Below are positions 1 through 22,041 of a stretch of 24,000 bases of DNA, one piece after another. The position numbers and the translations under genes are program-made. This DNA comes from Candidatus Caldarchaeales archaeon (lineage in GTDB: Archaea > Thermoproteota > Nitrososphaeria_A > Caldarchaeales > Calditenuaceae), in assembly GCA_039630085.1 (NCBI GenBank), contig JBCNVM010000007.1, positions 7,742 to 31,741 of the forward strand, written 5' to 3'. Numbering within the stretch: position 1 is the first letter of the stretch; each line of letters begins with the position of its first letter. Below the pieces are notes generated by a model. It was not told where the DNA came from. It did no database searches and saw only the letters and a program-made list of their open reading frames with translations.

Positions 1-1395
1 ATGAACATACTTTTCGGGCTTATACAGCCCGACGAAGGGGAGATCTACTTGGACGGCAGGAGGGTCGTCTTCAGGTCGCCCCTCGATGCGATAAACATGG
101 GCGTCGGGATGGTCCATCAGAACAGGAAGTTAATACCCGCGCACACCGTGCTCGACAACGTAATAATCGGACACCCGAAGACAGGGTGGCTTCTGGACAG
201 GAAGAGGAGCAGGGCCGAGGTGGAGGAGCTGTGCAGGAGGTTCGGGTTCGACCTTGACCTCGACGCGCGGGTCTGGCAGCTCTCGGCAGGGGAGAAGCAG
301 CTGGTCGAGATCGTCCGTGCCCTTTACAGGGGGGCTAAGATACTGATCCTCGATGAGCCGACGTCCGTGCTCACGCCGCCCGAGATCGAAAGCTTCTTGG
401 AGTCCCTCAAGGCCCTCTCGAGAGAGAAGATCACTCTGGTCCCGTTCGTGACCCACAAGCTTCCGGAAGTCTTTTCGACGTGTGACAGGGTTACCATCCT
501 CAGGAGGGGGAAGGTGGTCAAGACGCTTAACGTCAAGGAGGCCACTGCCAAGCAACTCGCAGAGTACATGGTCGGCAAGGAGGTTTCTCTCTCGATAGAG
601 AGGCAGGACTCCAGGTTAGGACAGGAGATCCTGAGGGTCGAGAACCTCTCCGCGATGAACGACAAGGGTCTCGTGGCCTTCAGCGGCGTCACCTTCTCGC
701 TGCGCGAGGGCGAGATCTTCGGCATAGCGGGCGTCAGCGGGAACGGACAGCATGAGCTGGCAGAGACCATCTTCGGCCTGAGGAGGCCGTTGTCCGGCAG
801 GATCCTCTACAACGACCGCGACATCACCAAGTCCTCCGTCCTCCAGCGGTTGCGGATGGGGATCGCATACATCCCGCCGGAGAGGTTGGGAGTTGCGGCG
901 GTCGGCGAACTGAGCTTAGTCGACAACGTGTTGCTCATGTATTACTACGACGGTGCCGCGTCGAGGAGCGGGTTCATCAATTACAAGCTCATTCGGGAGC
1001 TAACGGAACAGATCATCTCCGAATACGGCATTGTCGCTCCCGGGCCCACTGCCAAGGCATCGCACTTGTCCGGCGGAAACCTGCAGAGGCTCATCCTCGG
1101 CCGGGTCCTCTCTAGGAACCCGAAGGTCGTCATAGCTAACCTCCCGACGCAGGGGCTCGACGTGGCGGCCGCCCAGTACGTAAGGAGGAAGCTGCTGGAG
1201 TGCAAGCAGCGCGGTGCCGGCGTGATCCTGATCTCGGAGGACCTCGACGAGATACTGCAACTTAGCGATAGGGTCGCCCCCGTCTACGAGGGGCGTTTCG
1301 TCGACGTTCTTGATAACACGGCCCTCCGGAAGGAGGAAGTAGGGGCGATGATAGCGGGCGCCCACGCGGGGAGGGAGAAGGGCCTTGCTCAGTGA
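1..1395 (+). CDS. ABC transporter ATP-binding protein, tandem-cassette (BMP/CUT2-type sugar or nucleoside importer), 5' end cut by window edge
   Basis: The frame is open from base 1. The first-cassette Walker A is missing, so the gene continues upstream. Cassette 1 has signature LSAGEKQLVEI and Walker B ILILDEPTS. Cassette 2 has GVSGNGQHEL, signature LSGGNLQRL and ILISEDLDE. Stop TGA at 1393-1395. Confidence 0.9.
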   Translation: MNILFGLIQPDEGEIYLDGRRVVFRSPLDAINMGVGMVHQNRKLIPAHTVLDNVIIGHPKTGWLLDRKRSRAEVEELCRRFGFDLDLDARVWQLSAGEKQLVEIVRALYRGAKILILDEPTSVLTPPEIESFLESLKALSREKITLVPFVTHKLPEVFSTCDRVTILRRGKVVKTLNVKEATAKQLAEYMVGKEVSLSIERQDSRLGQEILRVENLSAMNDKGLVAFSGVTFSLREGEIFGIAGVSGNGQHELAETIFGLRRPLSGRILYNDRDITKSSVLQRLRMGIAYIPPERLGVAAVGELSLVDNVLLMYYYDGAASRSGFINYKLIRELTEQIISEYGIVAPGPTAKASHLSGGNLQRLILGRVLSRNPKVVIANLPTQGLDVAAAQYVRRKLLECKQRGAGVILISEDLDEILQLSDRVAPVYEGRFVDVLDNTALRKEEVGAMIAGAHAGREKGLAQ

Positions 1396-3383: not shown

Positions 3384-4730
3384 TTACTTCAGCAGCACTA
3401 TGCCGTCCAGCATGAAGTTGAGCCTCGCGAGTAGAAATTCGTCTGTCGGCATCTCTTTTGCGGGCTTCACCACGGTACCCTTCGGAGGTACCTTCAGGTT
3501 GAGCTGCGGTATTTCGATCCCCTCGCCACTGCTGACCAGCTCGTTCTCATAGAACGGGTCCCAAGCGCCGCTCATCATCTGAGCCCTCCTGAGCTCTATG
3601 AGTTTCAGTACCCTCTCGGGGATGAGCGGTCTCGCCTTCGGGCTGATCGCCTCGAGCCCCACCTTCATATCGTTCTGTAGGTCGACTGCCGGCAACTTGG
3701 TCTGGCCTGGCATGATCGGATTGTTCTCCGGCAGCGAGATGTGTGTGTTCATGCCCAAGAAGTAGATCCTGTCGGGGTTAGTAGTGCCCGCGAGGTACTC
3801 CTTCAGGATCCGGTCGAAGAGGACCTCCCATCTGGTGTCGAAGGATACGGCAACCGTGTCGGTGGTAGACCACTTGTAGAGTCCCACCACGTCCGTGTCC
3901 TTACCTACGAACCAGATCTTTTTCTCCTCCGCGACCCTGAGGGGCTCGACCGAGTCCGTGTAATGGGTCAGGACATCGACCCCGGCGTCCACTAACGCAA
4001 GCGATACCTCCTTCTCCTTGGGCGGATCGAACCACTCGCCGACGTATTTGATGTACAGCGTCGCGTTAGGGTTAGCGTCCTTGATCCCCAAGTAGAACGC
4101 GGCCATCCTCCTGAAGTTCTGCACGGCTGCCGGCCCCACTGCTATGCCGATCTTGTTCTTGCGCGTTATGGCGCCTGCGATCAGTCCCTCGAGGTACATC
4201 GCCTGATACTGTCTGATGAAAACCCTCATGAAGTTCCTTCTCGAAGAGACGTCGCTCCCGACGATGCCGAGGAAGTAGACGTTGGGGTTTTCGTCGGCTA
4301 TCCTGTGGAACGCGGGGACTGCCGCGGGCTCCCAGCTCCCGAAGATCACGTTGGCCTTGTTGACGGTGATCAGGTCCCTGGCCGACGATATCGGGTCCTT
4401 GCCCTTCAGGATAACACCCTCGTCGCGGACGTAGTCGAACCAGTTGTAGATCTTCTTCAGCCTCTCCGCGGCCATCACCTGGCGCCCGTCCCACGTCGAG
4501 CCCTCGACGTATCCTCCTAGGACCATCCCCAGAACGACCTTATTGGTCGCTTGAACCTCACGGGTCACGGTTGTCGTGAAGGCCCTCGTCTCGGTCACAG
4601 TCCGAGCTGGAGCTGCAGAGCCCCCAGCGAAGTATCCCCCAACAGCTCCCACGACTCCAGCGCCAACGGCGGCCGCCGCGACCTTTCCGGCAGTCGAGAT
4701 GGCCTCCCTTCTCGTTACCCTTCTAGTCAC
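3384..4730 (-). CDS. BMP-family (PnrA/Med-like) ABC substrate-binding protein with Tat-like signal/anchor
   Basis: 448-aa ORF with GTG start at 4730. The N-terminus has TRREAIS followed by the hydrophobic stretch AAAAVGAGVVGAVGG, then a Thr-rich linker (TVTETRAFTTTVTRE). The body has BMP-like blocks (AMYLEGLIAGAITRKNKIGIAVGP, FDPPKEKE, DAGVDVLTHY). It is convergent with the permease genes. Confidence 0.75.
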   Translation of the reverse strand: MTRRVTRREAISTAGKVAAAAVGAGVVGAVGGYFAGGSAAPARTVTETRAFTTTVTREVQATNKVVLGMVLGGYVEGSTWDGRQVMAAERLKKIYNWFDYVRDEGVILKGKDPISSARDLITVNKANVIFGSWEPAAVPAFHRIADENPNVYFLGIVGSDVSSRRNFMRVFIRQYQAMYLEGLIAGAITRKNKIGIAVGPAAVQNFRRMAAFYLGIKDANPNATLYIKYVGEWFDPPKEKEVSLALVDAGVDVLTHYTDSVEPLRVAEEKKIWFVGKDTDVVGLYKWSTTDTVAVSFDTRWEVLFDRILKEYLAGTTNPDRIYFLGMNTHISLPENNPIMPGQTKLPAVDLQNDMKVGLEAISPKARPLIPERVLKLIELRRAQMMSGAWDPFYENELVSSGEGIEIPQLNLKVPPKGTVVKPAKEMPTDEFLLARLNFMLDGIVLLK

Positions 4731-4773: not shown

Positions 4774-7098
4774 CTAATATCTTCGCCGACGAATAAGTTC
4801 ATAAAGCTTGTGGGGCTGCAGCGGGCTCTCGAACGGGATGACGGAGTTGTCGAGTGCGTCCTGCACTGTCGAGGCGATGACCGCGGCGACCGGTATAGCC
4901 CCTGCCTCTCCCACGCCCTTCACCCCCAGCGGGTTGAGAGGGGACGGTGTCTCGATGTGCCTTATGATTATCTCGTTCGGCGTCTCGACTGAGGTCGGAA
5001 CGAGGTAATCGGCGAAGCTCGCTGTCAGAGGCTGACCGTTCTCGTCGTGCACGATCTCCTCGAGCAGAGAGAACCCTATCCCGTTTGAAAGGCCTCCGAG
5101 GATCTGGCCCTCTACGATCATCGGATTTATGACTTTTCCGCAGTCGTGGACCACGACCATCCGCAGTATCGTGATTGCGCCCGTCTCCGGATCGACCTCT
5201 ACCTCGGCCGCTGCTCCTCCCGACGAGAACACTGAGTGTACCGGGCTGAAGTACTTCGTGGCCTCGAGCCCCGGCTCTCGCTTTATCAGGCCCCGCAGGG
5301 GACGGGCGCGCTCGGCGAGCTCTCCGAGGCCCATCGACTTGTCCGGTACCCCCTTGACGTAGACCCGTCCGTCCCTGAACTCCAAGTCGTCGGGACTGGT
5401 CTCGAGGATCTGCGCCGCGAGCTCCGCGGCTTTCCTCCTGACCTCCATTGCTGCCAGGTAGACCGCGTTTCCGGCTATGGTGGCAGACCTGCTGGCGAAT
5501 GTGCCCACCCCCCATGACATCTGCGCAGTGTCCCCGACGGCCACGTCCACATCGTGCACGCTCACTCCCAACGCCTCGGAGACGATCTGTGCCAAGGTGG
5601 TGGACTGGCCCTGACCCTGGGTCCCGACGCCCGTTGCGACGCTCACCTTGCCGGACGGCGTCACGGTCACTCTGGCCATCTCGTAGGGGCCCACTCCGGC
5701 TCCCTCAACGTAGAGCGCGAGCCCAAGCCCGACGAACCTGCCCTCTCTCCTGTACCTCTCCCTGCGTTCGGGCCAGCCTCTGTAGTCTATCGCGTCCAAG
5801 AGCGTCTCGAGGAGGAGCGGGTAATTCCCGCTGTCGTACTTCACCGGCCCTCCGTCCTGATAGATTATCCCGGTGTCGTACGGGAACTCGTTGGGCTGGA
5901 TGATATTCCGCCTCCTTATCTCGGCCCTGTCAAGTCCCAACCTGTGCGCCGCCACGTCCATCATCCTTTCCATCACGTAAACGGCTTCCGGTCTTCCGGC
6001 GCCTCTGACCGGGCTGACGATGGTCTTGTTGGTGTAGACCGACGCGAACTCCACGTCGAACGCGGGTATTTTGTATGGTCCGGGCATCGTCCCTGTTGTG
6101 ATGATCGGCACCATTATTCCATAGGGTGTGTAAGCTCCAGTGTCGACTAGGAAACTGTCGCTCAGTCCTAGTATCTTCCCGTCCCTGCTGAAGGCTGCCC
6201 TCACGTAGTGGACCTGTATCCTCTGCTGGTTGGCCGCCACCATATACTCCCGCCTCTCCTCTATCCACTTGACCGGACGGCCCAGCCTGATCGCCGCGAA
6301 GGGGACTAAGATCTCCTCGGGGTAGAACAGCATGATCTTCGGGCCGAACCCACCCCCCACGTCTGGAGCTATCACCCTCACCCGATTCTCGGGAATGCCG
6401 AACAGCTTCGCGAGTCCGTTCCGGATCGGAATTGGGGCTTGGGTGGAGTCCCAGACCGTCAGATAACCCGACTTCTCGTCGTAGTGCGCCACCACACCCC
6501 TGGTCTCTATGGATGCCCCCGCGCCCCTGTTGAAGACGATTCGCTGCTCTATCACGAGGTCTGCGCGCCGGAAGGCCTCGGAGACGTCTCCGACCCTCAC
6601 CCTATGTCGGGCTGCTATGTTGTTGGGCACGTCGTCGTGTACGAGCGGAGACCCGGGCTGAATCGCCCTCTCAACGTCAACGACTGGTTCCAGCGGATCG
6701 TATTCCACAGATATCAGCTCCAACGCGTCCCTTGCGACGTACTTGTCCTCGGCTACGACCATCGCGATCGGTTCCCCCACGTAACGCACCTTGTCCTTCG
6801 CTAGCGCGTAGTGGGTCTTCATGTAGGGTATCGGATATTGAGGCAGCGGGGTGATCGAGGGTGGAAGCGGTCCGTTCAGGGGCCCTAAGTCCTCGGCCGT
6901 GTAGACCGCCGCTACCCCGTCCAGCCTCTCGGCCCCCGACTTGTCAATCGAGACTATCCTCGCGTGGGCGTGGGGACTTCTCAGGATTGCAGCGTAGAGC
7001 ATTCGTGGGAGGACGATGTCGTCAACGAACAGGCCCTTGCCCGATAGAAGCCTCCCGTCCTCCAGTCTAGGTACGGAGGCTCCTATAATTTTCTTCAT
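4774..7098 (-). CDS. Molybdopterin-binding large subunit of the xanthine dehydrogenase / aerobic CO dehydrogenase (CoxL) family; substrate unknown
   Basis: The conserved N-terminus begins at ATG 7098 (MKKIIGASVPRLEDGRLLSGKG). Family motifs are present: VGGGFGPK, SPVRGAGRPE, EVEVDPETG, VHDCGKVINP, KGVGEAG. The track ORF extends to 7170, but the extra 24 codons run through the AT-rich promoter region. Confidence 0.85.
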   Translation of the reverse strand: MKKIIGASVPRLEDGRLLSGKGLFVDDIVLPRMLYAAILRSPHAHARIVSIDKSGAERLDGVAAVYTAEDLGPLNGPLPPSITPLPQYPIPYMKTHYALAKDKVRYVGEPIAMVVAEDKYVARDALELISVEYDPLEPVVDVERAIQPGSPLVHDDVPNNIAARHRVRVGDVSEAFRRADLVIEQRIVFNRGAGASIETRGVVAHYDEKSGYLTVWDSTQAPIPIRNGLAKLFGIPENRVRVIAPDVGGGFGPKIMLFYPEEILVPFAAIRLGRPVKWIEERREYMVAANQQRIQVHYVRAAFSRDGKILGLSDSFLVDTGAYTPYGIMVPIITTGTMPGPYKIPAFDVEFASVYTNKTIVSPVRGAGRPEAVYVMERMMDVAAHRLGLDRAEIRRRNIIQPNEFPYDTGIIYQDGGPVKYDSGNYPLLLETLLDAIDYRGWPERRERYRREGRFVGLGLALYVEGAGVGPYEMARVTVTPSGKVSVATGVGTQGQGQSTTLAQIVSEALGVSVHDVDVAVGDTAQMSWGVGTFASRSATIAGNAVYLAAMEVRRKAAELAAQILETSPDDLEFRDGRVYVKGVPDKSMGLGELAERARPLRGLIKREPGLEATKYFSPVHSVFSSGGAAAEVEVDPETGAITILRMVVVHDCGKVINPMIVEGQILGGLSNGIGFSLLEEIVHDENGQPLTASFADYLVPTSVETPNEIIIRHIETPSPLNPLGVKGVGEAGAIPVAAVIASTVQDALDNSVIPFESPLQPHKLYELIRRRRY

Positions 7099-7111
7099 AT
7101 GACGCCGGTCA

Positions 7112-7150
7112 TTGATTCTATTATTTATGTTTATTCTTTGATATAATAGT
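7112..7150. promoter_or_regulatory. AT-rich divergent promoter region (TATA-like boxes on both strands)
   Basis: The sequence ttgattctattatttatgtttattctttgatataatag is embedded in GC-rich DNA. The minus-strand ACATAAATAA lies about 25-35 nt upstream of ATG 7098. Confidence 0.45.
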
Positions 7151-7305
7151 TTTGCAGTCGTATGCCACATCGGAGGCGGTTCGCGTCTTCCCGTTCCACT
7201 GCTGCAGCAGGGCTCGCCTCGAACGCCGTCATGATGCGATTCTTTGCGCGGTCTCCGGGCCGAACTCGCGAACCTTTTTCCCGGAGAGGGAACGCGTAGC
7301 GCGCG

Positions 7306-8157
7306 ATGAAGTCCGGCGCGCTGAGCTACGACGAGGGCTACAGGCTGCTGTCGGAAGGCGGCGGAACCGTCGAGGCTCTGGGGAGCAGGGCGGCATACGT
7401 GAGGACGCCCTCCGAGGATGTTGTGATACTGACCGATCGACCTCTGACGCGCTATTCGGTCTCCCTCTTCGACTCTTGGGAGGACTTGAGGAAGGTCATC
7501 GAAGTGGGCGACCGCGTCTCGATCGAGCGGTCGACGCTGACGATCGGAGCTGAGCTCCGCGTGCCGTTGAGGGTACGGGGTCTCTGTTCGAGGGTGACGG
7601 GCCGCTCTGATCTCAGCCCAGAGTCCCTGAGCTCGGCGATCAGTTATTTCCGGGCGCTCGCTTCAGTCGACGAGCGCGACCCGGTTGTGGAGCGAGGCGT
7701 AGAGATCCTCAGGAGCAGCGCGAGTGCCGACGCTCTCTGCGAGTCCCTTAAGGAGGTCGTCGGAAAGGGCAGGGGGTACACGCCGGTCGGCGACGACTTC
7801 GTTTCGGGGGTCATGGTGGCCTTCAAGTTACTTGGCCGCGAATCTGACTTCCGTCCGCTCGTAGAGTTCGCAAAGTCGCGTTCGAGGTGGCCCAGCTGGA
7901 AAATGATGGAGCACTCCCTTCACGGGTGCACATTCCTTTCGGTCATGTCGCTCTGTGCCTCGATCGCAAAGGGGTCTGACCCAACTCCACATGTGATGAG
8001 TTCACTTAGGATGGGCAGCTCAACGGGGCTTGCCGTTTTGACAGGGCTTTTTGAGACGTTGTTTTTGTATTACAGGAGTTTGTCTAATATGTTTTTGAGG
8101 TCGTCCTCGATTTCCGCAGGTGGGCTCCATTCGACGTCGACGACTTCCACACCCTGA
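7306..8157 (+). CDS. DUF2877-like protein (YlbF/AllH family)
   Basis: 283-aa ORF. The GKGRGYTPVGDDFVSGV motif matches the G-x-G-x-G-x-TP-x-GDD-x-x-x-G signature I associate with DUF2877. It sits next to FdrA and DUF1116 genes, as in bacterial fdrA-ylbE-ylbF loci. The last ~29 codons are antisense to the 51-aa ORF and look low-complexity. Confidence 0.6.
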   Translation: MKSGALSYDEGYRLLSEGGGTVEALGSRAAYVRTPSEDVVILTDRPLTRYSVSLFDSWEDLRKVIEVGDRVSIERSTLTIGAELRVPLRVRGLCSRVTGRSDLSPESLSSAISYFRALASVDERDPVVERGVEILRSSASADALCESLKEVVGKGRGYTPVGDDFVSGVMVAFKLLGRESDFRPLVEFAKSRSRWPSWKMMEHSLHGCTFLSVMSLCASIAKGSDPTPHVMSSLRMGSSTGLAVLTGLFETLFLYYRSLSNMFLRSSSISAGGLHSTSTTSTP

Positions 8158-8225
8158 CTTCGGAGGCTCTCGGAGAATATTGACACGCCGATGCAGAGCA
8201 CCTTTCCGATCCTCTCCGGCGTCAT
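8070..8225 (-). CDS. Small protein (51 aa) equivalent to the C-terminal tail of bacterial FdrA; not in the supplied ORF track
   Basis: Hand translation gives MTPERIGKVLCIGVSIFSESLRSQGVEVVDVEWSPPAEIEDDLKNILDKLL. Its ATG (8223-8225) overlaps the FdrA stop TGA (8222-8224) as ATGA. It is collinear with the E. coli FdrA C-terminus as I recall it (VINIGLRSFALELQS...PVVHYQWSPVAGG...LARLLERL). Confidence 0.6.
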   Translation of the reverse strand: MTPERIGKVLCIGVSIFSESLRSQGVEVVDVEWSPPAEIEDDLKNILDKLL

Positions 8226-9769
8226 GTCACCTCACTCAGGACGAACCTCTCGATTAAGTGATGGAGCACCGATGCGTCCTCCTCCGCGCACGCCGCTGCG
8301 AACGCCGCGGTCACCGCGTTGGAGCCGGTGGTTATGAGCGGGTACTTCGAGAGCTCCCGTGTTTGATCCCATTGGGGGTCTTCGCCGGTTCCGACGACCC
8401 TCGCCGAGACCCTCTTGCGCTCTCCGGTCGCTAGCGCAGGCCCGACCTCCTCCAAGGTCCTCGAGACTGCGTCCACGGGAGCTCCGTACCCGATGATCAG
8501 GTCGAACGCGATCGATCCTGTCTCTGGTGATGCCAGCTCTTGAGTTATCCGCCTGTTCCTCAGCGACGGGTCTATTATCGGATGAACTCTTCCGGCGGTG
8601 AACTCCTCCGACCCGTAGTCAACCACGGTCGCCCCCCTAGAGCGCAGCGGATCGTCTAGCTTCTTCGTCCAAGGCAGCTCCAAATTCGAATAGACCTCGA
8701 TCCCCGCCTCGCTCCACAGGAATGCCGTCTCGGTCGCAAGCGTTCCGCCGCAGTAGAATCCGCGGGGATGACCTCCTCCGTCGACCTTCTCCTTGAGCGA
8801 GGTCACCTCTCTCTCCAGTGCCGAGAGGGCCTTGCTGTAAGCCTGAGGTGAGACGAGAGAGCAGGCCTTCAGCGCGGTCGCGTGGAGTGTGGGGAGTTGC
8901 GGGTGCTCGCTGATCTTCTCCTTGTGTCCGAGAAGGCAGAGCAGCAGGGGCTTGCCGATCTTCGCGTCTTCGAGGACCCGTTTCACGAGTTCCGCATCTG
9001 ACTGCTTGGCCAGCAGCACGATGACCTTCGTGCTCCGGTCTCCGTCGAGGAGCCTCAGCGACTCGCGCGTCATCAGCCCTCCCACGGCTCTGGTCATGTC
9101 GCGTCCTCCCACTCCGATCGCGTGAGAGATGCCCACTCCCATGTCGTGTAGTATGACCGACAACTCTTGGATGCCTGAGCCGGATGAGGCCACTATCCCC
9201 ACCGGGCCCCTGATGACCCTGTTCGCGAACCCGAAGCCCACGCCCCCAATTATCGAAGTCCCGGCCTCCGGCCCCATCACTAGGAGGTTCCTCGCGGCGG
9301 CCTCGCGCTTCATCGCTACCTCCACCTCTATCGGGACGTGATCGCTGAAGACGAAGAGGTTGACTCCCCTCTCGAGGAGCTTGAATGCGACGTCCTTCAC
9401 GTGCTGTCCGGGTATCGATATCGATGCCATTCTTATGTCCGGGTTCTCGTGCAGAGCGTCGTCTATGCTCGCGTATCTGGCGGTCCGGGGCTTCATCTGG
9501 AACAGGACCTCTCTCGCCTTCCTCAGGACGCCTTCCGTCAGCCCGACTCCCTTAAGTGCGATCACGATATCGTTTGGTCCTGCACGGTCGCCCTCCGGCG
9601 TGAGGATCCCCTGCGACCTCAGGAGCTCCTTATTGGCTTCGGTGGCCATGACGACCGCGACCTCGATCACCCCGGGCAGCCTCTTGATCGCCTCGGAGGC
9701 TTCCATCAGCTGCACCGAATCCCGATAAAGGCCTTGCACTACCAAGTTGATTACGTCAGTTGAACCCAC
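8222..9769 (-). CDS. fdrA: FdrA-type acyl-CoA-synthetase-like protein (succinyl-CoA-synthetase-alpha-like fold; AllF family)
   Basis: Collinear blocks match E. coli FdrA: YRDSVQLM, LVMGPEAGTSII, GIVASSGSGIQEL, SHAIGVGGRDM, GRVHPIIDPSLRN, VVGTGEDPQ. The ORF is open to TTG 9793, which lies inside the TATA-like box. GTG 9769, about 25-30 nt downstream of that box, is the more plausible start. Confidence 0.85.
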   Translation of the reverse strand: MGSTDVINLVVQGLYRDSVQLMEASEAIKRLPGVIEVAVVMATEANKELLRSQGILTPEGDRAGPNDIVIALKGVGLTEGVLRKAREVLFQMKPRTARYASIDDALHENPDIRMASISIPGQHVKDVAFKLLERGVNLFVFSDHVPIEVEVAMKREAAARNLLVMGPEAGTSIIGGVGFGFANRVIRGPVGIVASSGSGIQELSVILHDMGVGISHAIGVGGRDMTRAVGGLMTRESLRLLDGDRSTKVIVLLAKQSDAELVKRVLEDAKIGKPLLLCLLGHKEKISEHPQLPTLHATALKACSLVSPQAYSKALSALEREVTSLKEKVDGGGHPRGFYCGGTLATETAFLWSEAGIEVYSNLELPWTKKLDDPLRSRGATVVDYGSEEFTAGRVHPIIDPSLRNRRITQELASPETGSIAFDLIIGYGAPVDAVSRTLEEVGPALATGERKRVSARVVGTGEDPQWDQTRELSKYPLITTGSNAVTAAFAAACAEEDASVLHHLIERFVLSEVT

Positions 9770-9790
9770 AATCGATGCGATCTGAAAGTG

Positions 9791-9806
9791 CAATATTTAT
9801 ATTAGT
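9791..9806. promoter_or_regulatory. Shared quasi-palindromic TATA element between divergent fdrA and cyclase genes
   Basis: The sequence caATATTTATATTag contains AATAT..ATATT inverted halves. It is the only AT-rich element between GTG 9769 (-) and ATG 9820/9832 (+), and is about 25-35 nt from each. Confidence 0.5.
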
Positions 9807-9831
9807 GTTCCGAGGCGTGATGATCGCGACC

Positions 9832-10629
9832 ATGTCTGCCGTTGTAGATCTGTCAAAGGTAAAAATATATGACTTATCCCAGCCGACCAGCGCGAGAGCT
9901 CCGCCCTTCATGTACTACCCTCCGTTCAAATGGACGTGGATCAAGAGGCTCGGAGAGCACGGCGTCAACGCGCAGTACATCGAGGGACCGCTTCACACGG
10001 GTACGCACTTCGACGGCCAGCTGCACTTCATGACGGGAGGGAAGGACATGGCCAGCATCGACGTCAGCTACTTCATCGGGGAGGGGATCATAGTTGACAT
10101 CAGCAAGCGCGTCGGCGACTACGACATCTACACAAGCGACATGATCGAGGAGGCGGCGAGGGAGGCAGGCCTCCGGATAAAGCCCGACGACATACTGCTC
10201 ATCTACACGGGTTACAGCCGTTACGCGTGGTGCGGTCCCGAGCCCGACGAAGTGCGGTACATGTGTAAGCACCCGGGCCCCGACATCAGGTTCGCGAGGT
10301 GGTGCATCGAGAAGAGGATCAGGTGGCTCGGCGTCGACGCGATGTCGCAGGACCACCCTCTGAACACCGTCGTCAGGAGGGCGAGGCCCGACCTGGTAGC
10401 GGAGGCCGAAAGGAAGTGGGGAAAGAAGATCGACGAGGTGCTGCCCTGGCCCGAGAACTATCAGGTGATGCACACGATGCTTTTCCCGAGGATGATCCTT
10501 CATGTCGAGAACCTAGGAGGGGACATCGACAAGGTCGTCAACAAGAGGTGCCTGATCATAGCGCTGCCGTTCAAGTTCGAGGGAGGAGAGAGCGCGTACT
10601 GCCGAGTGGTGGCCCTCACCTCGGAATGA
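9832..10629 (+). CDS. Putative-cyclase family metal-dependent hydrolase (kynurenine formamidase / isatin hydrolase-like)
   Basis: The HTGTHFDGQLHF motif matches the family signature HxGTHxDxPxH, and there is a downstream GVDAMSQDHP block. The track ORF starts at TTG 9760 inside fdrA. ATG 9832 (or ATG 9820) fits the TATA spacing. The stop lies 6 nt before the DUF1116 ATG. Confidence 0.75.
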   Translation: MSAVVDLSKVKIYDLSQPTSARAPPFMYYPPFKWTWIKRLGEHGVNAQYIEGPLHTGTHFDGQLHFMTGGKDMASIDVSYFIGEGIIVDISKRVGDYDIYTSDMIEEAAREAGLRIKPDDILLIYTGYSRYAWCGPEPDEVRYMCKHPGPDIRFARWCIEKRIRWLGVDAMSQDHPLNTVVRRARPDLVAEAERKWGKKIDEVLPWPENYQVMHTMLFPRMILHVENLGGDIDKVVNKRCLIIALPFKFEGGESAYCRVVALTSE

Positions 10630-10635
10630 GCAGGC

Positions 10636-11898
10636 ATGGAGACGCTTAAGGAGGAGATCGAGAGGGCGAACGATAAGTGCCTCGATCTGATGATGGAGGC
10701 GAGGCCCCTCCTCGTGGACATCGTAGAGGCGCGGAAGGTCATACCCTTCCTCGCGAAGGACAAATGCCTCACGCATGCGGGCCCGCCGATTAGCTGGGAT
10801 AGGGCCAGCGGCCCCCTGAGGGGCGCGATAATCGGAGCCGCGATCTACGAGGGCTGGGCCGAGAACGAGAGAGAGGCGATCAGGCTGGCGGAGAGGGGTG
10901 AGATAGTCCTCGAGCCCAATCACCATCACTCGGCGGTCAGTCCCATGGCCGGCGTCATCTCGCCGTCGATGAAGGTCTTCGTGGTCAGGGACGGTGACCT
11001 GAGGACTTACAGCAACCTCAACGAGGGGCTCGGTAAGGTCATGAGGTACGGCGCCTACTCCCCCGACGTTTTGGACCGCCTCCGCTTCTTGAACGAGGTC
11101 GTCGGCCCCGTTCTCTCCGACGCGGTGAAGGAGTACGTCCGTGATAAGGGGGGAATGGATCTGAAGAGCATAATGGCCCAGGCGGTCCATATGGGCGACG
11201 AGTGTCACAACCGGAACATTGCCTCGACTTCCCTGTTCTACAGAGAGATATCGTCCTATGTTATCGACTCGACTGACAAAGAGACAGCAAAAATTGTGCT
11301 TAAGACGATCGACTCTAACATCTTATTCTTCCTTAACATGGCAATGGCGGCCTGCAAGCTGATGGCCGATAGGGCCCACGGCGTCAAGTACAGCACGATC
11401 GTGACCACGATCGCGAGGAACGGCACGGACGTCGGCATCAGGGTGAGCGGGCTCGGAGACCAGTGGTTCACAGCTCCGGCGACCATACCTAGGGGTCTGT
11501 ACTTCTCAGGGTTCAGCGAGTCCGACGCAAACCCCGACATAGGCGACAGCACGATAACCGAGACAGTCGGGCTCGGTGCGGCCGCTTTGGCGGCGAGCCC
11601 GGCGATCGTGAGGTTCATCGGCGGGGACGCGAAGACGGCGATCGAGATCACCAACAGGATGGCGAAGATCTGTCACGGCAGGCACCGCTACTTCACGATC
11701 CCCTATCTAGAGTTCGAGGGTACCCCAGTTGGGATAGACATCAGGAGGGTTCTGCGACTCGGTCTTCCGCCTGTGGCCGACACGGGCATAGCGCATAGGG
11801 AGGCCGGAGTGGGGCAGATAGGCGCAGGGATCGTCGAGCTGCCGATCGAGCCCTTCAAGCAGGCCCTGAGGAAATACGCCGAGGCCTACGGGATCTGA
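10636..11898 (+). CDS. DUF1116 protein (YlbE/AllG family)
   Basis: 420 aa. It is collinear with E. coli YlbE as recalled: LTHAGPPISW, EGWAENEREA, NHHHSAVSPMAG, NLNEGLGKVMRYGAY, MGDECHNRNIAS, FFLNMAMAACK, GIRVSGLGDQWFTAP, ANPDIGDSTITET, DTGIAHREAGVGQIGAG. Confidence 0.85.
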   Translation: METLKEEIERANDKCLDLMMEARPLLVDIVEARKVIPFLAKDKCLTHAGPPISWDRASGPLRGAIIGAAIYEGWAENEREAIRLAERGEIVLEPNHHHSAVSPMAGVISPSMKVFVVRDGDLRTYSNLNEGLGKVMRYGAYSPDVLDRLRFLNEVVGPVLSDAVKEYVRDKGGMDLKSIMAQAVHMGDECHNRNIASTSLFYREISSYVIDSTDKETAKIVLKTIDSNILFFLNMAMAACKLMADRAHGVKYSTIVTTIARNGTDVGIRVSGLGDQWFTAPATIPRGLYFSGFSESDANPDIGDSTITETVGLGAAALAASPAIVRFIGGDAKTAIEITNRMAKICHGRHRYFTIPYLEFEGTPVGIDIRRVLRLGLPPVADTGIAHREAGVGQIGAGIVELPIEPFKQALRKYAEAYGI

Positions 11899-11986: not shown

Positions 11987-12010
11987 GTGGACCGGGCGGG
12001 ATTCGAGCCC
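11987..12010 (-). repeat. Inverted partial copy of the tRNA-Ala 3' end (T-loop to discriminator/first C)
   Basis: 11987-12006 (gtggaccgggcgggattcga) is the exact reverse complement of tRNA positions 14189-14208 (20/20). The match is 23/24 when extended to 12010. The GC content drops immediately after 12010. Confidence 0.85.
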
Positions 12011-12071
12011 AGATTTACTCACCGGCTTTCCTTATTACTCCGAAAAAAGGTAGGTAAGTTCACAGAAAAAG

Positions 12072-12080
12072 TTATAAATT
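12072..12080 (+). promoter_or_regulatory. TATA box for the HAD gene
   Basis: TTATAAATT lies 24-32 nt upstream of ATG 12104, consistent with a leaderless transcript. Confidence 0.4.
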
Positions 12081-12103
12081 TCTACGTGCAAGGGTTTATA
12101 ATA

Positions 12104-12973
12104 ATGAGCAGAGTATTCCATAATACAATCGCCCTCATAATGGATTGTGACGATACGCTGTGTGAGGACACCACTGACGCGTGTCTAAAGCAGATCGGAA
12201 TAGAAGATCCTCTGGAGGACTTCTGGAAAAAGAGAGTAAAACCCAAGGTCAAAGATGGCTGGGACCCGCCACTAGCGTATATGACCGAATTCATAAATGT
12301 GGCCAAGGAAAAAGGTACAAAACTCACAAAGGATTTTTTGAGAAAGTAGGACGAAATCTGAAATTTTATCCCGGAGTTCCAAACTTTTTCGATGAGTTAA
12401 GGAATGAGGTCAAAGCTATTAGCAACGAGTACGAAATCGACATAAGGATTGAGTTTTATGTTATTAGCTCAGGTTTTGAAGAGGTCATAACGGCGAGTCC
12501 TCTAAACTCCTATGTAACCGAAATTATGGATGTACATTTTACATTGATGAAAACGGTCGTGTAATATGCCCGAAATCGATAGTAACGTTTACGGAAAAAA
12601 AAACAAATTTGTGTTCGCGATAAACAAGGGCATTAACAAGATGATTTTACGAAGTGACCCTGGTAGAGTTAATGACACGATAAGTGAGGAGAATAGAAGG
12701 ATTCCCTTCAAGAACATGATCTACATAGGAGACGGACCAACAGACATACCCTGCTTCTCGCTTATCACAAGGAACGGGGGGCGAGGATTAGGAATTATAC
12801 AGCCCGAAAAGCCAGAAAGGGGGGCTCCATTATGGAAAGGACGAAGAATAACTGTGGGACCGTACCGCCCTAATTATGAGCAAGGATCAGACCTCCGACT
12901 TATGATAAAGGCTTTGATAAGAGACATCTCAGCGAGTATTTATGAGGAGTCGAAAATGTCATATCGCCCGTGA
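12104..12973 (+). pseudogene. HAD-superfamily hydrolase gene disrupted by three single-nucleotide deletions
   Basis: HAD motif I (IMDCDDTL) is in frame 2. Motif II (YVISSG) is in frame 1. The segment YGCTFYIDENGRVICPKSIVTFTEKK is in frame 3. The K..KG region and motif IV (YIGDGPTDIP) are back in frame 2. The frame switches are at about 12346 (GG), about 12525 (TT) and the A9 run at 12595-12603. The track shows three fragments: 11987..12349, 12181..12564 and 12566..12973. Confidence 0.75.
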
Positions 12974-13025
12974 CATTCATTAACAAATAGATGTCGTCGC
13001 GATCTCGATCGAATAAACCATCATT

Positions 13026-13037
13026 ATTTTATAAAAT
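13026..13037. repeat. Perfect 12-nt palindrome ATTTTATAAAAT, copy 1 (TATA-like)
   Basis: Read directly from the sequence. It is self-complementary and preceded by ATCATT, as is copy 2. Confidence 0.7.
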
Positions 13038-13126
13038 TCTCGTAGAGCGGAGCACGTTGACCTATCCTGTTAAATACGTAGACGAAACATCGCATACTCG
13101 ACGCATTCGGAAAAATCATTTACACT

Positions 13127-13138
13127 ATTTTATAAAAT
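13127..13138. repeat. Perfect 12-nt palindrome ATTTTATAAAAT, copy 2 (TATA-like)
   Basis: An identical 12-mer lies 101 nt downstream of copy 1. The context is ATCATTtacacTATTTTATAAAAT. Confidence 0.7.
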
Positions 13139-14134
13139 GTTGAATACAGTATAGAGAGCTAATTTTATTTTAGCATTAGTGACTGATTTTAAGTGTTGTT
13201 TTGTTGATCGCTCTTCCTTTCAGTATACTGGTCGCAGCATTTGGTTAAACCTGTCCGGAGGAAAAGGCAAGTCGTTTCGGTGGCTTCTGGGTTTGGATTA
13301 GCCATGGGGTTGATAGGTGGAATTTTCGGACGCGGGTTGGGCTGCTTACATAGTTTACAATAAGGTCATCTGGGATTATTTCGTTGTTGGCTGTTCATAG
13401 TTTGTGACATTATAATAATTTAGAGAACTACAAGAAAGATCTCACGTCGTCTCAAGCTTGTGGAACGGGAGGTTCGAGGGTAACTGTTCGAGTTTTGACG
13501 GCTCGGTGGGAAATGGTCTGCCGAAGCTGTGGAAACATCCCGACACTAAGCTTTAGAGCGTATAACATCTGTGGTTCAAGGCTCTACATGGAGAGATAGG
13601 TGTAAAATACCCTGTCTGCAAAGGTTCCCTATCCTGCACCACAGAAACCGTTTGAAAGGAAGGACAGAACAGGCTCTTAGAAGAATAGCAGATTGTGTGA
13701 GGAGATTTGGGACACCCGGATAACCCTAAATCGTGTTTCAGTCTCGCTCAAAAAGCTCATCAGAAAGTTCTTGAAATTGATTTTTCTGATTTACGGTAAC
13801 AACCAGCTTTTTCGTTGAGAAAACCTAAACGCTATAGTTGTGAAGATGTCTGTGAATACTGAGAGATGAGGAGGTTGGAGAGGAAAACGCAGTCTCAGAG
13901 GTGCCGAAAAGTGTCTCTGAAGAGCGTTGATCGGGAAGTTGCGTTCGCCTTGCTTCCTGACAGCGACAGTATTATCACTTCGGCGTTGATACTCCTGAGA
14001 AATCTGGCTCGAAATAGTCAACCCGTCACAAAAGGATGTGAGACGAAAAAAGCAGGAGTCATAGGAACGAATTAAGGCGGAGAAAGCCCGATTACATTAA
14101 AACTAAAATTCTCCGAGTGAGAGATGCGATAAGG

Positions 14135-14210
14135 GGGCCGGTAGATCAGCGGTATGATCGCCCGGTTGGCGTCCGGGAGGTCGCGGGTTCGAATCCCGCC
14201 CGGTCCACCA
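14135..14210 (+). tRNA. tRNA-Ala (anticodon GGC) with genomically encoded CCA
   Basis: Hand-folded cloverleaf. Acceptor gggccgg/ccggtcc has a G3:U70 pair, the Ala identity element. D stem is gatc/gatc. Anticodon stem is cccgg/ccggg with loop ttGGCgt. Variable loop is aggtc. T arm is gcggg-ttcgaat-cccgc. Discriminator is A, followed by CCA at 14208-14210. An AT-rich box (cattaaaactaaaatt) lies about 25-40 nt upstream. Confidence 0.9.
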
Positions 14211-14311: not shown

Positions 14312-15391
14312 TTACTCCTCCTCGTCGGGAAGTATCACGAGTGCGACATCCCCGTCGGAGTTCACTAGAGGTACACTCGGAGCCTTTTCCTCAGCGACTT
14401 CCTCTTCAACGATCTCCTCATCGTCTCTCGGTTTTCGCCAACGTCTTCTCAGCCGGAGCATTCTCTCCCTTACTATCTCTTCGAGCCTGCGCAGCTTCCT
14501 CTCAATAGAAAACCCGACCTTTTCCAGAAACAGCGGCAGGCAGGCATTACGTATTCGGATCCTATAACAGTCCTTACTAGACACGCCCCCTCCGATCTCC
14601 ATTGATGTGCCGGCTGGTATGTGTAGGTACGGACCTGTGGACATTATTCCTAGGTCCTCCAACAACTCCTGTGCCCACCTCAGCACATCGACGTTTGTAT
14701 TGTACAGTATTACGCCGCTCTTACCGACACTTCCCTCCGAGTCGAAGAAACCCCGGAGGAAAGCGACCTTTGTCTGTTCATCGTGCTCGACGAACTTCCG
14801 TATTCGTTCGATGTCTCTATCAATAAGAAGCTGGGTCAATATTATGTCCCGCACTCTAACGACATAAAACGTCTTCCCGTCTCTAACCATTTCTAGAATC
14901 GGCGGAGGATCCCTGTTCAGGACTTTCGCCAGCGCCTGTGCGAAGGACATGGCGAAGTCCAGATCCCGGACAATTAGTTGGATCACACATGCCCATTTAC
15001 GTCTATAATGGAGCAGATAGACTGACCCGTCCCCGAAGACCACGCCTATGACATAGGCTAGTTCCGGAGACGGCTCCAGCTCGTCGAGTGACCGGAACCT
15101 CCGACGCTGGGATAATCCCATCCGATAGGGCGACCTCTCCCCTCTCATCCATCTTACTACGGTTGACTGATATATTGTCACCCCGAAGGTTTCATAAATA
15201 ATTTCCACGATCTGTTTGACGCTGTATCCTTGTTCTATCAGCTGTAGGGCTACATGATAAATCTGGATCATGAGGGCTTTGGGTCTCCTTCGGCGCTTTT
15301 TCGTGGTCCCTCCTTTCTTAGATCGTCGGGTCTCGCCTCTCGGGCCAAGAGACGAGACTGCTAAGTCCGGATCCACCAAGCCATCCGACAT
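14312..15391 (-). CDS. Free-standing double-motif LAGLIDADG homing-endonuclease-like protein with N-terminal HTH and acidic C-terminal tail
   Basis: There are two LAGLIDADG motifs about 95 aa apart, LAYVIGVVFGDGSV and VAFLRGFFDSEGSV, and both keep the acidic catalytic position (D, E). The N-terminus has a basic KKRRRRPK stretch plus a resolvase/transposase-like HTH (GYSVKQIVEIIYETFGVTIYQSTVVRWMRG). A strong SD, GGAGGTGA, lies 6 nt upstream of ATG 15391. Confidence 0.8.
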   Translation of the reverse strand: MSDGLVDPDLAVSSLGPRGETRRSKKGGTTKKRRRRPKALMIQIYHVALQLIEQGYSVKQIVEIIYETFGVTIYQSTVVRWMRGERSPYRMGLSQRRRFRSLDELEPSPELAYVIGVVFGDGSVYLLHYRRKWACVIQLIVRDLDFAMSFAQALAKVLNRDPPPILEMVRDGKTFYVVRVRDIILTQLLIDRDIERIRKFVEHDEQTKVAFLRGFFDSEGSVGKSGVILYNTNVDVLRWAQELLEDLGIMSTGPYLHIPAGTSMEIGGGVSSKDCYRIRIRNACLPLFLEKVGFSIERKLRRLEEIVRERMLRLRRRWRKPRDDEEIVEEEVAEEKAPSVPLVNSDGDVALVILPDEEE

Positions 15392-15576
15392 TTCCTTTCA
15401 CCTCCGGGGGTCGAACTCCCTTCCCCGAGCAGGAAGAAACCCTCCCGCATGGGCAGGAGGGTCCCCCTGTCGAGGGCCAGACCACCTGAGGGGTGAATTT
15501 AAGCCTCGCTAGCGGCGTCGGTCCGAGACCTAGGGAACGGGATGGGCTTTATCCGGCAGGAGCTCGGCGACCGGTC

Positions 15577-16287
15577 GTGAAAGATTGGACCCTTCCCGTG
15601 GTGGTTCTGAACTTCAAGGCGTACAGGGAGGCGGTGGGAAGCGGCGCAGAGAGGCTCGGTTACGTCGCGGAGACCGTCTCGAGGGAGCTGGGCGTCACGG
15701 TCGCGGTCGCGGTCCAGCCGACCGACGTCTACAGGCTCTCCGGCAGGCTCGGGATTCCCGTCCTGGGACAGCACGTCGATCCCTACGAGGAGGGGAGCTG
15801 GACGGGGCACGTGACCGCGTTCGCGCTGAGGGAGGCTGGGGCAGCGGGGAGCCTCCTGAACCACTCCGAGAGGAGGATAGGGCTCTCCGAGATCGCGGCC
15901 GCGGTCGAGCTCCTCAGGAAGGAGGGCCTGAAGTCGATCGTCTGCGCCGACACGCCGCTGACCAGCAGGGCCGCCGGAGCCCTGAGGCCGGACATGGTCG
16001 CGGTCGAGCCCCCGGAGCTGATAGGGACCGGGATATCGGTCTCGAGGGCGAGGCCGGAGGTCGTCACCGACGCGGTGAAGATGCTGGCCTCCGTCGAGCC
16101 GAGCGTCTCGCTCCTCTGCGGCGCGGGCATCTCGACCCCGGAGGACGTCTACAGGGCGATAGAGCTGGGAACGGTGGGAGTGCTGGTCTCGTCGGCGTTC
16201 GTGAAGTCCAAGGACCCCCAGCAGACCCTAACGGGCTTCTGCGAGGCGGCGCTGAAGGCCTACGAGCGGAGGGTCAGTAGATCCTGA
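15577..16287 (+). CDS. tpiA: Triosephosphate isomerase (archaeal type)
   Basis: Motifs VVVLNFKAY, GSLLNHSERR, AVEPPELIGTG and LCGAGIS are present. The track ORF starts at GTG 15493 with 28 non-conserved codons. GTG 15577 (or GTG 15595) gives the typical length of about 230-236 aa. Confidence 0.85.
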   Translation: MKDWTLPVVVLNFKAYREAVGSGAERLGYVAETVSRELGVTVAVAVQPTDVYRLSGRLGIPVLGQHVDPYEEGSWTGHVTAFALREAGAAGSLLNHSERRIGLSEIAAAVELLRKEGLKSIVCADTPLTSRAAGALRPDMVAVEPPELIGTGISVSRARPEVVTDAVKMLASVEPSVSLLCGAGISTPEDVYRAIELGTVGVLVSSAFVKSKDPQQTLTGFCEAALKAYERRVSRS

Positions 16288-16918: not shown

Positions 16919-17021
16919 ACCCCGCTCGGGGTCGGGGCTCAGCCTTTAACGTGTCGCCGCGGCCCCCGGCGATCCTAGCGGCGCGGAAACTCAAATCTCC
17001 GGGCATCGAGGTGGATCCGTG

Positions 17022-18223: not shown

Positions 18224-18309
18224 CACGTGAGCCCCCGGACACTTAAGACTTTCCCGGAGACCAATAACTTGATAAGACGGCCATCGGTTCAATCCTCTTA
18301 GGTTCTGCG

Positions 18310-22040: not shown

Positions 22041-22041
22041 G

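Follow-up and report, generated by a model that had tools for sequence, protein, structure and literature searches.

An undescribed AllFGH-type gene cluster with a free-standing 51-residue module, linked to a cyclase-family hydrolase and a molybdenum hydroxylase, in a Caldarchaeales archaeon

A 24,000-nucleotide stretch of a Candidatus Caldarchaeales genome (assembly GCA_039630085.1, contig JBCNVM010000007.1, positions 7,742 to 31,741), referred to here as the window, carries five closely packed genes that encode homologues of AllF (FdrA), AllG (DUF1116), and AllH (DUF2877), a cyclase-family hydrolase, and a protein of 51 residues. These five genes are a member of a widespread and undescribed variant of the AllFGH system, which is tied to a molybdenum (Mo) hydroxylase and to the cyclase-family protein. 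By its alignments, the 51-residue open reading frame (ORF) is a conserved mobile module of approximately 45 residues that is free-standing in archaea. As judged from its gene content, the cluster probably breaks down a cyclic nitrogen compound, with uracil as the likeliest candidate, and conserves energy in the form of carbamoyl phosphate. The literature searched contained no publication on a cluster of cyclase, AllF/AllG, and Mo hydroxylase genes.

All five ORFs were found at the positions given in a preliminary description of this DNA, and its assignments to the FdrA, DUF1116, DUF2877, and cyclase families were upheld by profile hidden Markov model searches. The peptide blocks GPEAGT, SSGSGIQEL, and IGVGGRD that it had listed are present in the FdrA translation, and the coordinates confirm that only 6 nt separate the cyclase stop codon (10627-10629) from the ATG of AllG (10636). 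The host, which had been taken for a crenarchaeon, is instead an Aigarchaeota-type thermophile of the phylum Nitrososphaerota. Similarly, the E. coli AllF-AllG-AllH oxalurate/oxamate carbamoyltransferase (oxamic transcarbamylase), which had been regarded as merely proposed, was purified and assayed in 2024 (Kim & Kim, PMC11326118). That enzyme splits oxalurate with phosphate to yield carbamoyl phosphate, and its identification concerns oxalurate in E. coli only (PMC11326118).

Conservation of the gene cluster

The preliminary description had treated the genes as one functional set, and the conservation of their layout in related archaea and bacteria bears this out. In Candidatus (Ca.) Caldarchaeum subterraneum the layout is identical: Mo hydroxylase (-), hyp246 (-), AllH (+), small module (-), AllF (-), cyclase (+), and AllG (+), where hyp246 denotes a protein of approximately 245 residues. 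In Vulcanisaeta thermophila, the cyclase, AllF, small module, AllG, and AllH genes form one collinear unit, which adjoins the genes for the large, FAD, and iron-sulfur (FeS) subunits of the Mo hydroxylase, an amidase, and a family III coenzyme A (CoA)-transferase. Its further neighbours are a crotonase-family protein, an NCS2 permease, an NCS1 permease, and an amino-acid-kinase gene, the homologue of which at locus L115 is carbamate-kinase-like (arcC, 237 bits, below the cutoff). At two loci from close Caldarchaeales relatives (L087 and L094), the five genes are surrounded by a transporter, a cytosine-deaminase-like gene, the hydroxylase, hyp246, and a carboxyltransferase. The window is a reduced version of the cluster, lacking both hyp246 and the carboxyltransferase.

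The most complete cluster in one stretch was found in a metagenome-assembled genome (MAG) of the Halanaerobiales (L086, 400-19100), which would make it well suited as a model for reconstituting the pathway. It begins with a uracil-permease-like gene, PucR, AllH, an MmdA-type carboxyltransferase, a biotin carrier, OAD_beta, AllF, and AllG, and continues with the cyclase, carbamate kinase, the Mo hydroxylase subunits, a CoA-transferase, and CN_hydrolase. Bacterial carriers of the cluster belong to the Chloroflexota, Acidobacteriota, Gemmatimonadota, Bacillota, Thermotogae, Caldisericales, and Spirochaetota, and archaeal carriers to the Desulfurococcales, Thermoproteales, Bathyarchaeia, and Nitrososphaerota.

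A scan with an AllG profile, using one genome per species, returned more than 592 loci, of which the best 80 were annotated by tblastn and ORF clustering. The census comprises the 47 AllG loci flanked by 5 kb or more on each side, and it counts neighbours within 10 kb by heuristic ORF calling. A cyclase homologue is present at 35 of these loci and the Mo hydroxylase large subunit at 34, followed by the hydroxylase FAD subunit (27), AllH (22), amidase (14), NCS2 permease (13), CoxG (13), hyp246 (11), CoA-transferase (11), CN_hydrolase (9), and carbamate kinase (6). Loci with the cyclase also tend to have the Mo hydroxylase (odds ratio 23, p = 8.5e-5, with no correction for phylogeny). The cyclase gene had been described as a local insertion into a rearranged trio; it is instead a conserved partner at most related loci, along with the Mo hydroxylase.

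Three of the recurrent genes appear to replace one another. One of amidase, CN_hydrolase, and hyp246 occurs at 33 loci, and two of them together at one locus only; this near mutual exclusion suggests that they encode interchangeable enzymes for a single step. The hyp246 gene is found in Ca. Caldarchaeum subterraneum (L002:5828-6568) and at 12 other loci, and its product carries the invariant motifs SLHT and HELGG. Searches of Pfam and of the PDB gave no match to it apart from a weak GNAT hint, and hyp246 is a candidate new enzyme family for the amidase/CN_hydrolase step.

A small module with alternating fusion partners

The 51-residue ORF aligns with residues 513-554 of E. coli AllF and also with residues 12-58 of E. 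coli YahG, a DUF1116 paralogue. Its start codon overlaps the FdrA stop codon as ATGA, with the sequence GAGGTGA just upstream. A 51-residue ORF at the equivalent site in Ca. Caldarchaeum subterraneum shares 76% identity with it, and a 54-residue ORF located between AllF and AllG in Vulcanisaeta thermophila shares 43%. Among the 77 AllG loci where the module was detected, it is fused to the C-terminus of AllF at 42 and to the N-terminus of AllG at 18, is free-standing at 11 (7 archaeal and 4 bacterial), and is ambiguous at the remaining 6.

Relative to the window copy, homologues of the module have 627, 357, and 1059 substitutions at codon positions 1, 2, and 3, respectively, a distribution typical of translated sequence. 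When 1.84 billion representative proteins were scanned in full with HMMER, the module was located in 222 clusters at E<=0.001, whereas a word-indexed homologue search had returned two relatives only. Approximately 130 of the best 150 matches in the HMMER scan were proteins of 42-100 residues. The module matched no Pfam family, even at E<=1, and its profile matched no PDB sequence; the tail of E. coli AllF lies inside the deposited 3dmy sequence, at chain positions 420-474.

The preliminary description had called FdrA split. A rival reading is that the five genes adjoin by chance and that the small ORF is what a frameshift has left of a decaying FdrA gene. The ORF is indeed not among the gene calls of the identical Logan contig. 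It also appears to be unannotated in the NCBI record, since AllG and AllH are identical to the MAG entries MEN3048068.1 and MEN3048065.1, between which there are only two accession numbers, and these must belong to AllF and the cyclase. In addition, the window lacks several genes of its closest relatives. However, the layout is kept across archaeal orders and many bacterial phyla, and a free-standing protein with a coding substitution pattern and members in 222 representative clusters is no lesion; decay with chance adjacency is refuted by these observations and is barely credible. A frameshift or programmed frameshift linking AllF to the small ORF was likewise rejected, as the separate ORF is conserved in many lineages. 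The module thus belongs to the neglected small proteins that gene callers routinely miss.

The alternating fusion partners are informative about the architecture of the enzyme. Because the module is fused now to AllF and now to AllG, the two proteins can be argued to touch (Rosetta-stone evidence), which suggests an AllF-AllG complex with contact via the small module. The multi-subunit enzyme envisaged in the preliminary description is plausible for the same reason. The 51-residue protein is probably needed for assembling this predicted complex, which matters for any reconstitution of the archaeal enzyme.

In the window, the convergent AllH gene (+) and small ORF (-) share 88 nt (8070-8157), compared with an overlap of 18 nt in Ca. 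Caldarchaeum subterraneum. The last ~20 residues of AllH, which lie antisense to the small ORF, are Ser/Thr-rich, non-conserved, and predicted to be disordered, and this extra tail looks like a read-through extension.

The AllF, AllG, and AllH subunits

AllF is a family member short of equivalog level: it matches NF004760 over model positions 5-502 of 555 with 320 bits, below the curated cutoff of 433. It also matches succinyl-CoA-synthetase-alpha (E 1e-13). The HMA_AllF_N and Ligase_CoA domains are recorded for an identical protein, and PDB entry 3dmy is matched with an E-value of 7e-54. Sequence identity is 56% to AllF from Ca. Caldarchaeum subterraneum, 36% to E. coli YahF, and 32% to E. 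coli AllF. Across 61 homologues, G401, H404, and P405 are invariant. His404 is not claimed to be a phosphohistidine: it lies in the third (Ligase_CoA-like) domain and does not align with the phosphohistidine loop of succinyl-CoA-synthetase-alpha.

AllG is 46% identical to E. coli AllG and 43% identical to E. coli YahG, and in a neighbour-joining tree the archaeal AllG proteins form one clade, separate from both. Its AlphaFold2 model (pLDDT 91) superposes on 3clq, a protein of unknown function, with a TM score of 0.94; no other PDB fold matched the model, which marks AllG as an orphan fold. AllH is 41% identical to its counterpart from Ca. Caldarchaeum subterraneum, while E. coli AllH is recognisable by profile only. 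The AlphaFold2 model of AllH (pLDDT 75, falling below 50 in the tail at 264-282) consists of an N-terminal beta-barrel and a helical bundle, for which no fold match was found in the PDB.

The resemblance of FdrA to succinyl-CoA-synthetase alpha and Ligase_CoA domains, together with the frequency of CoA-transferase and thiolase-like genes among the neighbours, could be taken to mean that FdrA is a nucleoside-diphosphate-forming acyl-CoA synthetase or ligase, which activates an acid released by the cyclase with DUF1116 and DUF2877 as accessory subunits. Yet purified E. coli AllFGH transfers the carbamoyl group with phosphate and without CoA (PMC11326118). Furthermore, no ATP-grasp beta subunit is present, and AllG, matching only 3clq, has an orphan fold. 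This alternative is highly improbable, and nothing was found in support of the novel ligase that the preliminary description had considered.

The cyclase-family hydrolase and the molybdenum hydroxylase

The cyclase-family protein carries the metal-binding motif HTGTHFDGQLH, which fits the pattern HxGTHxDxxxH. Among solved structures, isatin hydrolase (5nmp) and kynurenine formamidase (4co9) come nearest to it, with E-values of only ~1e-8, and it falls far below the arylformamidase equivalog (KynB, TIGR03035; 43.8 bits against 223, with only the N-terminal 85 positions aligned). It shares 84% identity with the cyclase from Ca. Caldarchaeum subterraneum and 61% with that from Vulcanisaeta. A metagenome scan seeded with the cyclase alone returned 55 loci with 41-83% identity. 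Where 5 kb or more was available on both sides, AllF/AllG were present at 11 of 13 loci; where one side had 5 kb or more, they were present at 23 of 32. As this reverse search returns AllF/AllG, the cyclase subfamily is dedicated to the cluster; the functional tie between cyclase and trio that the preliminary description had supposed is thereby supported from both directions. The cyclase is proposed to be a ring-opening hydrolase, probably supplying a ureide substrate to AllF/AllG/AllH.

The Mo hydroxylase scores below every NCBIfam cutoff. It approaches that of carbon monoxide dehydrogenase (CODH) group 5 (NF040766, 913 against 950) but is distant from form I CODH (TIGR02416, 568 against 991) and from the xanthine dehydrogenase equivalogs XdhA/PucD (432 against 780, and 332 against 784). 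The active-site loop, VRGAGRPE, is form II-like, and the AYxCSFR motif of form I CoxL does not occur. In the PDB, the nearest entries are 8uem, 7dqx, and 1t3q, representing CoxL, 6-hydroxypseudooxynicotine dehydrogenase, and quinoline 2-oxidoreductase, respectively. Papers on Aigarchaeota take such CoxL-like genes as evidence of CO oxidation (PMC6053391, PMC10547907). The conserved neighbourhood suggests that at least this CoxL-like copy serves the catabolism of an N-heterocycle rather than CO oxidation; its place in a nucleobase-type catabolic cluster calls for caution in inferring CO oxidation from CoxL-like genes.

A proposed route for pyrimidine degradation

The gene families, how conserved they are and how often they occur together, and the three states in which the module is found were observed directly; from these we infer every substrate and reaction step in the following scheme. 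The BMP-type ABC transporter would import a nucleoside or base. The CoxL-like Mo hydroxylase would then add a water-derived oxygen to the ring, converting uracil to barbiturate or thymine to 5-methylbarbiturate, after which the cyclase-family metallo-amidohydrolase would open the ring to give an N-acyl-urea, ureido(methyl)malonate, in a manner analogous to the opening of a lactam by isatin hydrolase. The complex of AllF, the 51-residue module, AllG, and AllH would cleave the carbamoyl-N bond with phosphate, yielding carbamoyl phosphate and an amide (malonamate). Oxalurate, the substrate of the E. coli enzyme, and ureidomalonate are one CH2 apart. The carbamoyl phosphate could be used by carbamate kinase, where the gene is present, to give ATP and NH3, or could enter biosynthesis. 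In related genomes, the amide may pass via malonate and malonyl-CoA to acetyl-CoA through the successive action of an amidase, nitrilase-type hydrolase, or hyp246, a family III CoA-transferase, and an MmdA-type or crotonase-type decarboxylase.

Several recurrent neighbours suggest nucleobases, and pyrimidines more than purines. Uridine phosphorylase passes its equivalog cutoff (283.9 against 280.3) and lies directly beside AllG or the cyclase at six loci. Cytosine-deaminase-family proteins, which reach at most 442 bits where the cutoff is 483, adjoin NCS1 permeases, and four of the six NCS2 permeases tested best matched uracil permease, the other two xanthine permease. BMP-type ABC transporters recur at related loci, as in the window, and a transporter set like that of the window is found beside AllF/AllG elsewhere.

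On the carbon side, the neighbours include a family III CoA-transferase and either an MmdA-type carboxyltransferase or, instead, a crotonase-family protein. At L086 and L007, MmdA-type, OAD_beta, and biotin carrier genes make up a complete sodium-pumping (methyl)malonyl-CoA decarboxylase between AllH and AllF. These genes suggest malonate or methylmalonate as the product.

Carbamate kinase, as noted in the preliminary description, was not detectable by tblastn in the 24-kb window. Its absence from the genome, together with that of any ureide pathway, had been named as a refutation of an oxamate-type function, but absence from the window is not decisive: in Thermoproteales and Nitrososphaerales relatives the gene is in the cluster, and carbamate kinase or carbamate-kinase-like genes were found in-cluster at L004, L008, L103, L104, and L113-L116.

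The system might instead be a plain orthologue of oxamate carbamoyltransferase, which splits oxalurate derived from purines, allantoin, or parabanate, with the cyclase as an accessory amidase acting, for example, on oxamate. All three subunits are homologous to those of E. coli, with 46% identity for AllG, and the Pfam families bear the name of that enzyme. Moreover, family III CoA-transferases include oxalate CoA-transferases (NF008511, 317 bits), and amidase-signature enzymes include oxalurate and allophanate hydrolases. Nevertheless, a tblastn search of 135 loci with the E. coli proteins found two AllB-like genes, one AllC-like gene, no AllD or AllE, and none of the four in the window. As AllB/C/D/E are essentially absent, the allantoin-to-oxalurate context of E. 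coli AllFGH is inapplicable here. The AllF score lies below the curated cutoff, and the archaeal AllG clade is distinct from E. coli AllG. The conserved neighbours included parts of a (methyl)malonyl-CoA decarboxylase, but no oxalyl-CoA decarboxylase was seen among them. Nor would this alternative explain why Mo hydroxylase and cyclase are so closely linked, and it is unlikely.

A variant of purine (xanthine/urate) degradation, with the hydroxylase as a xanthine dehydrogenase and cyclase paralogues opening purine-derived rings before carbamoyl transfer, would account for the PucR-family regulators at 5 loci, for the pbuX-like character of some permeases, and for the two to three cyclase paralogues in Chloroflexota loci, a number that fits a two-ring substrate. 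BMP transporters, too, commonly import purine nucleosides. However, the hydroxylase scores far under the xanthine dehydrogenase equivalogs (432 against 780) and groups with CoxL and quinoline oxidoreductase, archaeal clusters contain a single cyclase, and the neighbouring uridine phosphorylase and cytosine-deaminase-like genes indicate pyrimidines. A purine substrate is therefore still less likely than oxalurate.

The pyrimidine route must also be weighed against a number of observations that speak against it. The transporter and deaminase matches lie under the curated cutoffs, two of six NCS2 permeases are more xanthine-permease-like, the NCS1 permeases are nearest to allantoin/hydantoin types, and PucR-type (purine) regulators occur at some loci. 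The window has no amide hydrolase, CoA-transferase, decarboxylase, carbamate kinase, or hydroxylase M/S subunits, and no M/S subunit genes adjoin its hydroxylase, to which sequence alone assigns no substrate. AllH was undetected within 10 kb at 25 of the 47 AllG loci, an absence that is uncertain because the family evolves fast (a search for AllH homologues returned 4 proteins only). The 80 annotated AllG loci are the ones that resemble the window most, and they are not phylogenetically independent of one another, so that the percentages of the census are biased upward, and the assignment of the substrate rests wholly on gene neighbourhood. With these points taken together, it is about as likely as not that the window contains the central part of a conserved module for degrading a cyclic ureide, with a pyrimidine base as the most probable one.

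A broader proposal, which we put forward tentatively and with some doubt, is that the oxidative pyrimidine pathway has a widespread counterpart, independent of oxygen, phosphorolytic, and built from non-homologous parts, in many anaerobic and thermophilic bacteria and in TACK archaea. The 'form II CoxL' would then be a uracil/thymine dehydrogenase, the cyclase-family protein a barbiturase, and AllF with the 50-residue subunit, AllG, and AllH a ureidomalonate:phosphate carbamoyltransferase, in which the ureido group is kept as carbamoyl phosphate for ATP. Malonamate would proceed to acetyl-CoA via a sodium-pumping or soluble malonyl-CoA decarboxylase. If this were true, orphan activities would gain genes, and many 'putative CO dehydrogenases' would have to be re-labelled.

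Comparison with known systems

Relative to E. coli AllFGH, the window system comprises the same three protein families and, by analogy, probably performs the same phosphorolysis of an N-carbamoyl amide to carbamoyl phosphate. The differences lie in its organization: the C-terminal module of AllF is a separate 51-residue gene, the genes lie in divergent/convergent orientation and not in the order allFGHK, there are no carbamate kinase or allantoin genes nearby, and the conserved partners are instead a cyclase-family hydrolase and a Mo hydroxylase. The uncharacterised E. coli paralogue cluster yahE-yahF-yahG-yahI-yahJ is similar in that the window AllF is slightly closer to YahF (36%), and in that YahJ-like cytosine-deaminase-family genes also accompany many cyclase-type clusters. 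Unlike the window, however, it has the small module fused N-terminally to YahG, it includes a carbamate kinase, and it lacks both a cyclase and a Mo hydroxylase. The window cluster suggests that the AllFGH family is a general acyl-urea phosphorylase, paired with varied ring-opening enzymes.

The proposed intermediates barbiturate, ureidomalonate, and malonate are identical to those of the pyrimidine pathway in Rhodococcus and Mycobacterium, the first enzyme of which is also a Mo/FAD/FeS hydroxylase. This classical oxidative route leads from uracil through barbiturate and ureidomalonate to urea and malonate, by means of uracil dehydrogenase, barbiturase, and ureidomalonase (Soong et al. 2001/2002, summarised in PMC3758960). 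There are two principal differences. Ring opening is here ascribed to a cyclase-family protein rather than to the AtzD/barbiturase fold, to which no Pfam match was found among the window proteins scanned, the related loci lying outside that scan. In addition, the ureido group would here be split off by phosphate, giving carbamoyl phosphate and an amide, whereas in the classical route water yields urea and malonate. AtzD/barbiturase homologues occur in ~3% of genomes (PMC3758960). Should the pyrimidine interpretation hold, a pathway thought to be rare would be common and would yield ATP without oxygen, and genes would be at hand for a uracil dehydrogenase, an analogous barbiturase, and a new ureidomalonate-cleaving enzyme. 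The cluster thus offers a concrete biochemical hypothesis that is open to cheap testing.

With isatin hydrolase and kynurenine formamidase (5nmp, 4co9), the window cyclase shares the PF04199 fold family and the HxGTHxDxxxH motif, and isatin hydrolase also opens a cyclic amide. The window protein differs in belonging to a dedicated subfamily that travels with AllF/AllG and is related to these structures at an E-value of only ~1e-8.

The nearest published report to the window cluster concerns ammonia-oxidising archaea and comammox bacteria, which carry allFGHK + biuH + bmpA-nupABC clusters and for which an oxalurate substrate is assumed (PMC12625717). There, too, an archaeal AllFGH adjoins a BMP-type ABC transporter and is read as scavenging the breakdown products of nucleobases. 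Those clusters differ in that they encode a carbamate kinase and a biuret hydrolase, with no report of a cyclase or Mo hydroxylase in them. YgeW from the reductive uric acid pathway (PMC12507026) provides a further parallel, as it removes a ureido group with phosphate rather than water, enabling ATP formation by carbamate kinase. YgeW, however, is an enzyme of the classical aspartate/ornithine carbamoyltransferase (ATCase/OTCase) fold and is unrelated to AllF/G/H.

Other features of the window

The features of the cluster and of its upstream neighbours are given in Table 1. The top NCBIfam matches of the ABC ATPase at the window start are sugar/nucleoside-type ABC ATPases, and this gene is part of a BMP/PnrA-type uptake system for nucleosides or nucleobases. 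The longest ORF of the second permease starts at 2179. Comparison with relatives and with the gene calls on an identical contig led to three revised starts: AllF probably begins at GTG 9769 (515 residues, against 516 in Ca. Caldarchaeum subterraneum), the cyclase at ATG 9832 or 9820, and the Mo hydroxylase at ATG 7098 (774 residues). The AT-rich element AATATTTATATTA lies ~29 nt from GTG 9769 and ~34 nt from ATG 9832, and as read from the DNA it may be a bidirectional TATA box shared by AllF and the cyclase.

Table 1. Position, strand, and supporting matches of the annotated features of the window.
Feature	Position	Strand	Evidence
ABC transporter ATPase, cut at window start	1..1395	+	two ABC_tran domains
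Two BPD_transp_2 permeases	1385-2467, 2464-3357	+	PF02653 both; gene calls on identical contig L001
BMP/PnrA-like substrate-binding protein	3384..4730	-	PF02608, E 4e-25
Mo hydroxylase large subunit, CoxL/quinoline-oxidoreductase-like	4774..7170	-	Pfam Ald_Xan_dh_C, MoCoBD_1, MoCoBD_2
AllH / DUF2877 subunit	7306..8157	+	PF11392, 62 bits vs cutoff 25, E 8e-17
51-residue free-standing AllF/AllG linker module	8070..8225	-	FdrA model positions 512-554, E 1.6e-4
AllF / FdrA subunit, succinyl-CoA-synthetase-alpha-like	8222..9793	-	NF004760, E 2e-95
AT-rich element AATATTTATATTA, candidate TATA box	9792..9804	.	read from sequence, between divergent AllF and cyclase starts
Cyclase-family metal-dependent amidohydrolase	9760..10629	+	PF04199, 123 bits vs cutoff 23, E 1.5e-35
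AllG / DUF1116 subunit	10636..11898	+	PF06545, 295 bits vs cutoff 27, E 3.5e-88

Directly after AllG there is a 2.1-kb island of low GC content (41-43%, against ~60%; 11987-14208), bracketed by a 24-nt inverted repeat with 23 of 24 positions matched. One arm of the repeat is the 3' end of tRNA-Ala(GGC) (14135-14210), and the other, at 11987-12010, is its reverse complement. In the closest relatives AllG is followed by the carboxyltransferase gene, which here may thus have been displaced when DNA was integrated or inverted at the tRNA. Within the island, three consecutive ORFs in different frames (11987-12973) join to a sequence of 288 residues with DxDxT and GDGxxD motifs and weak matches to HAD phosphatases (Put_Phosphatase, E 1.2e-5, below the cutoff), and this region looks like a fragmented HAD-family gene. 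A free-standing ORF of 359 residues with a LAGLIDADG_3 domain (14312-15391, -) adjoins the tRNA-Ala gene.

The right-hand third of the window (15493-24000) consists of unrelated housekeeping genes, among them triose-phosphate isomerase, a nucleotidyl transferase, a GNAT acetyltransferase, and Rpb5-like and Rpb2-like RNA polymerase subunits, and the cluster therefore ends at AllG. At some Chloroflexota loci, AllG is adjoined by a gene for a PF05635 '23S rRNA-intervening sequence protein', which lies between AllG and the cyclase at L015:11347-11685 and L021:11279-11773, and before AllG at L043:3258-3806.

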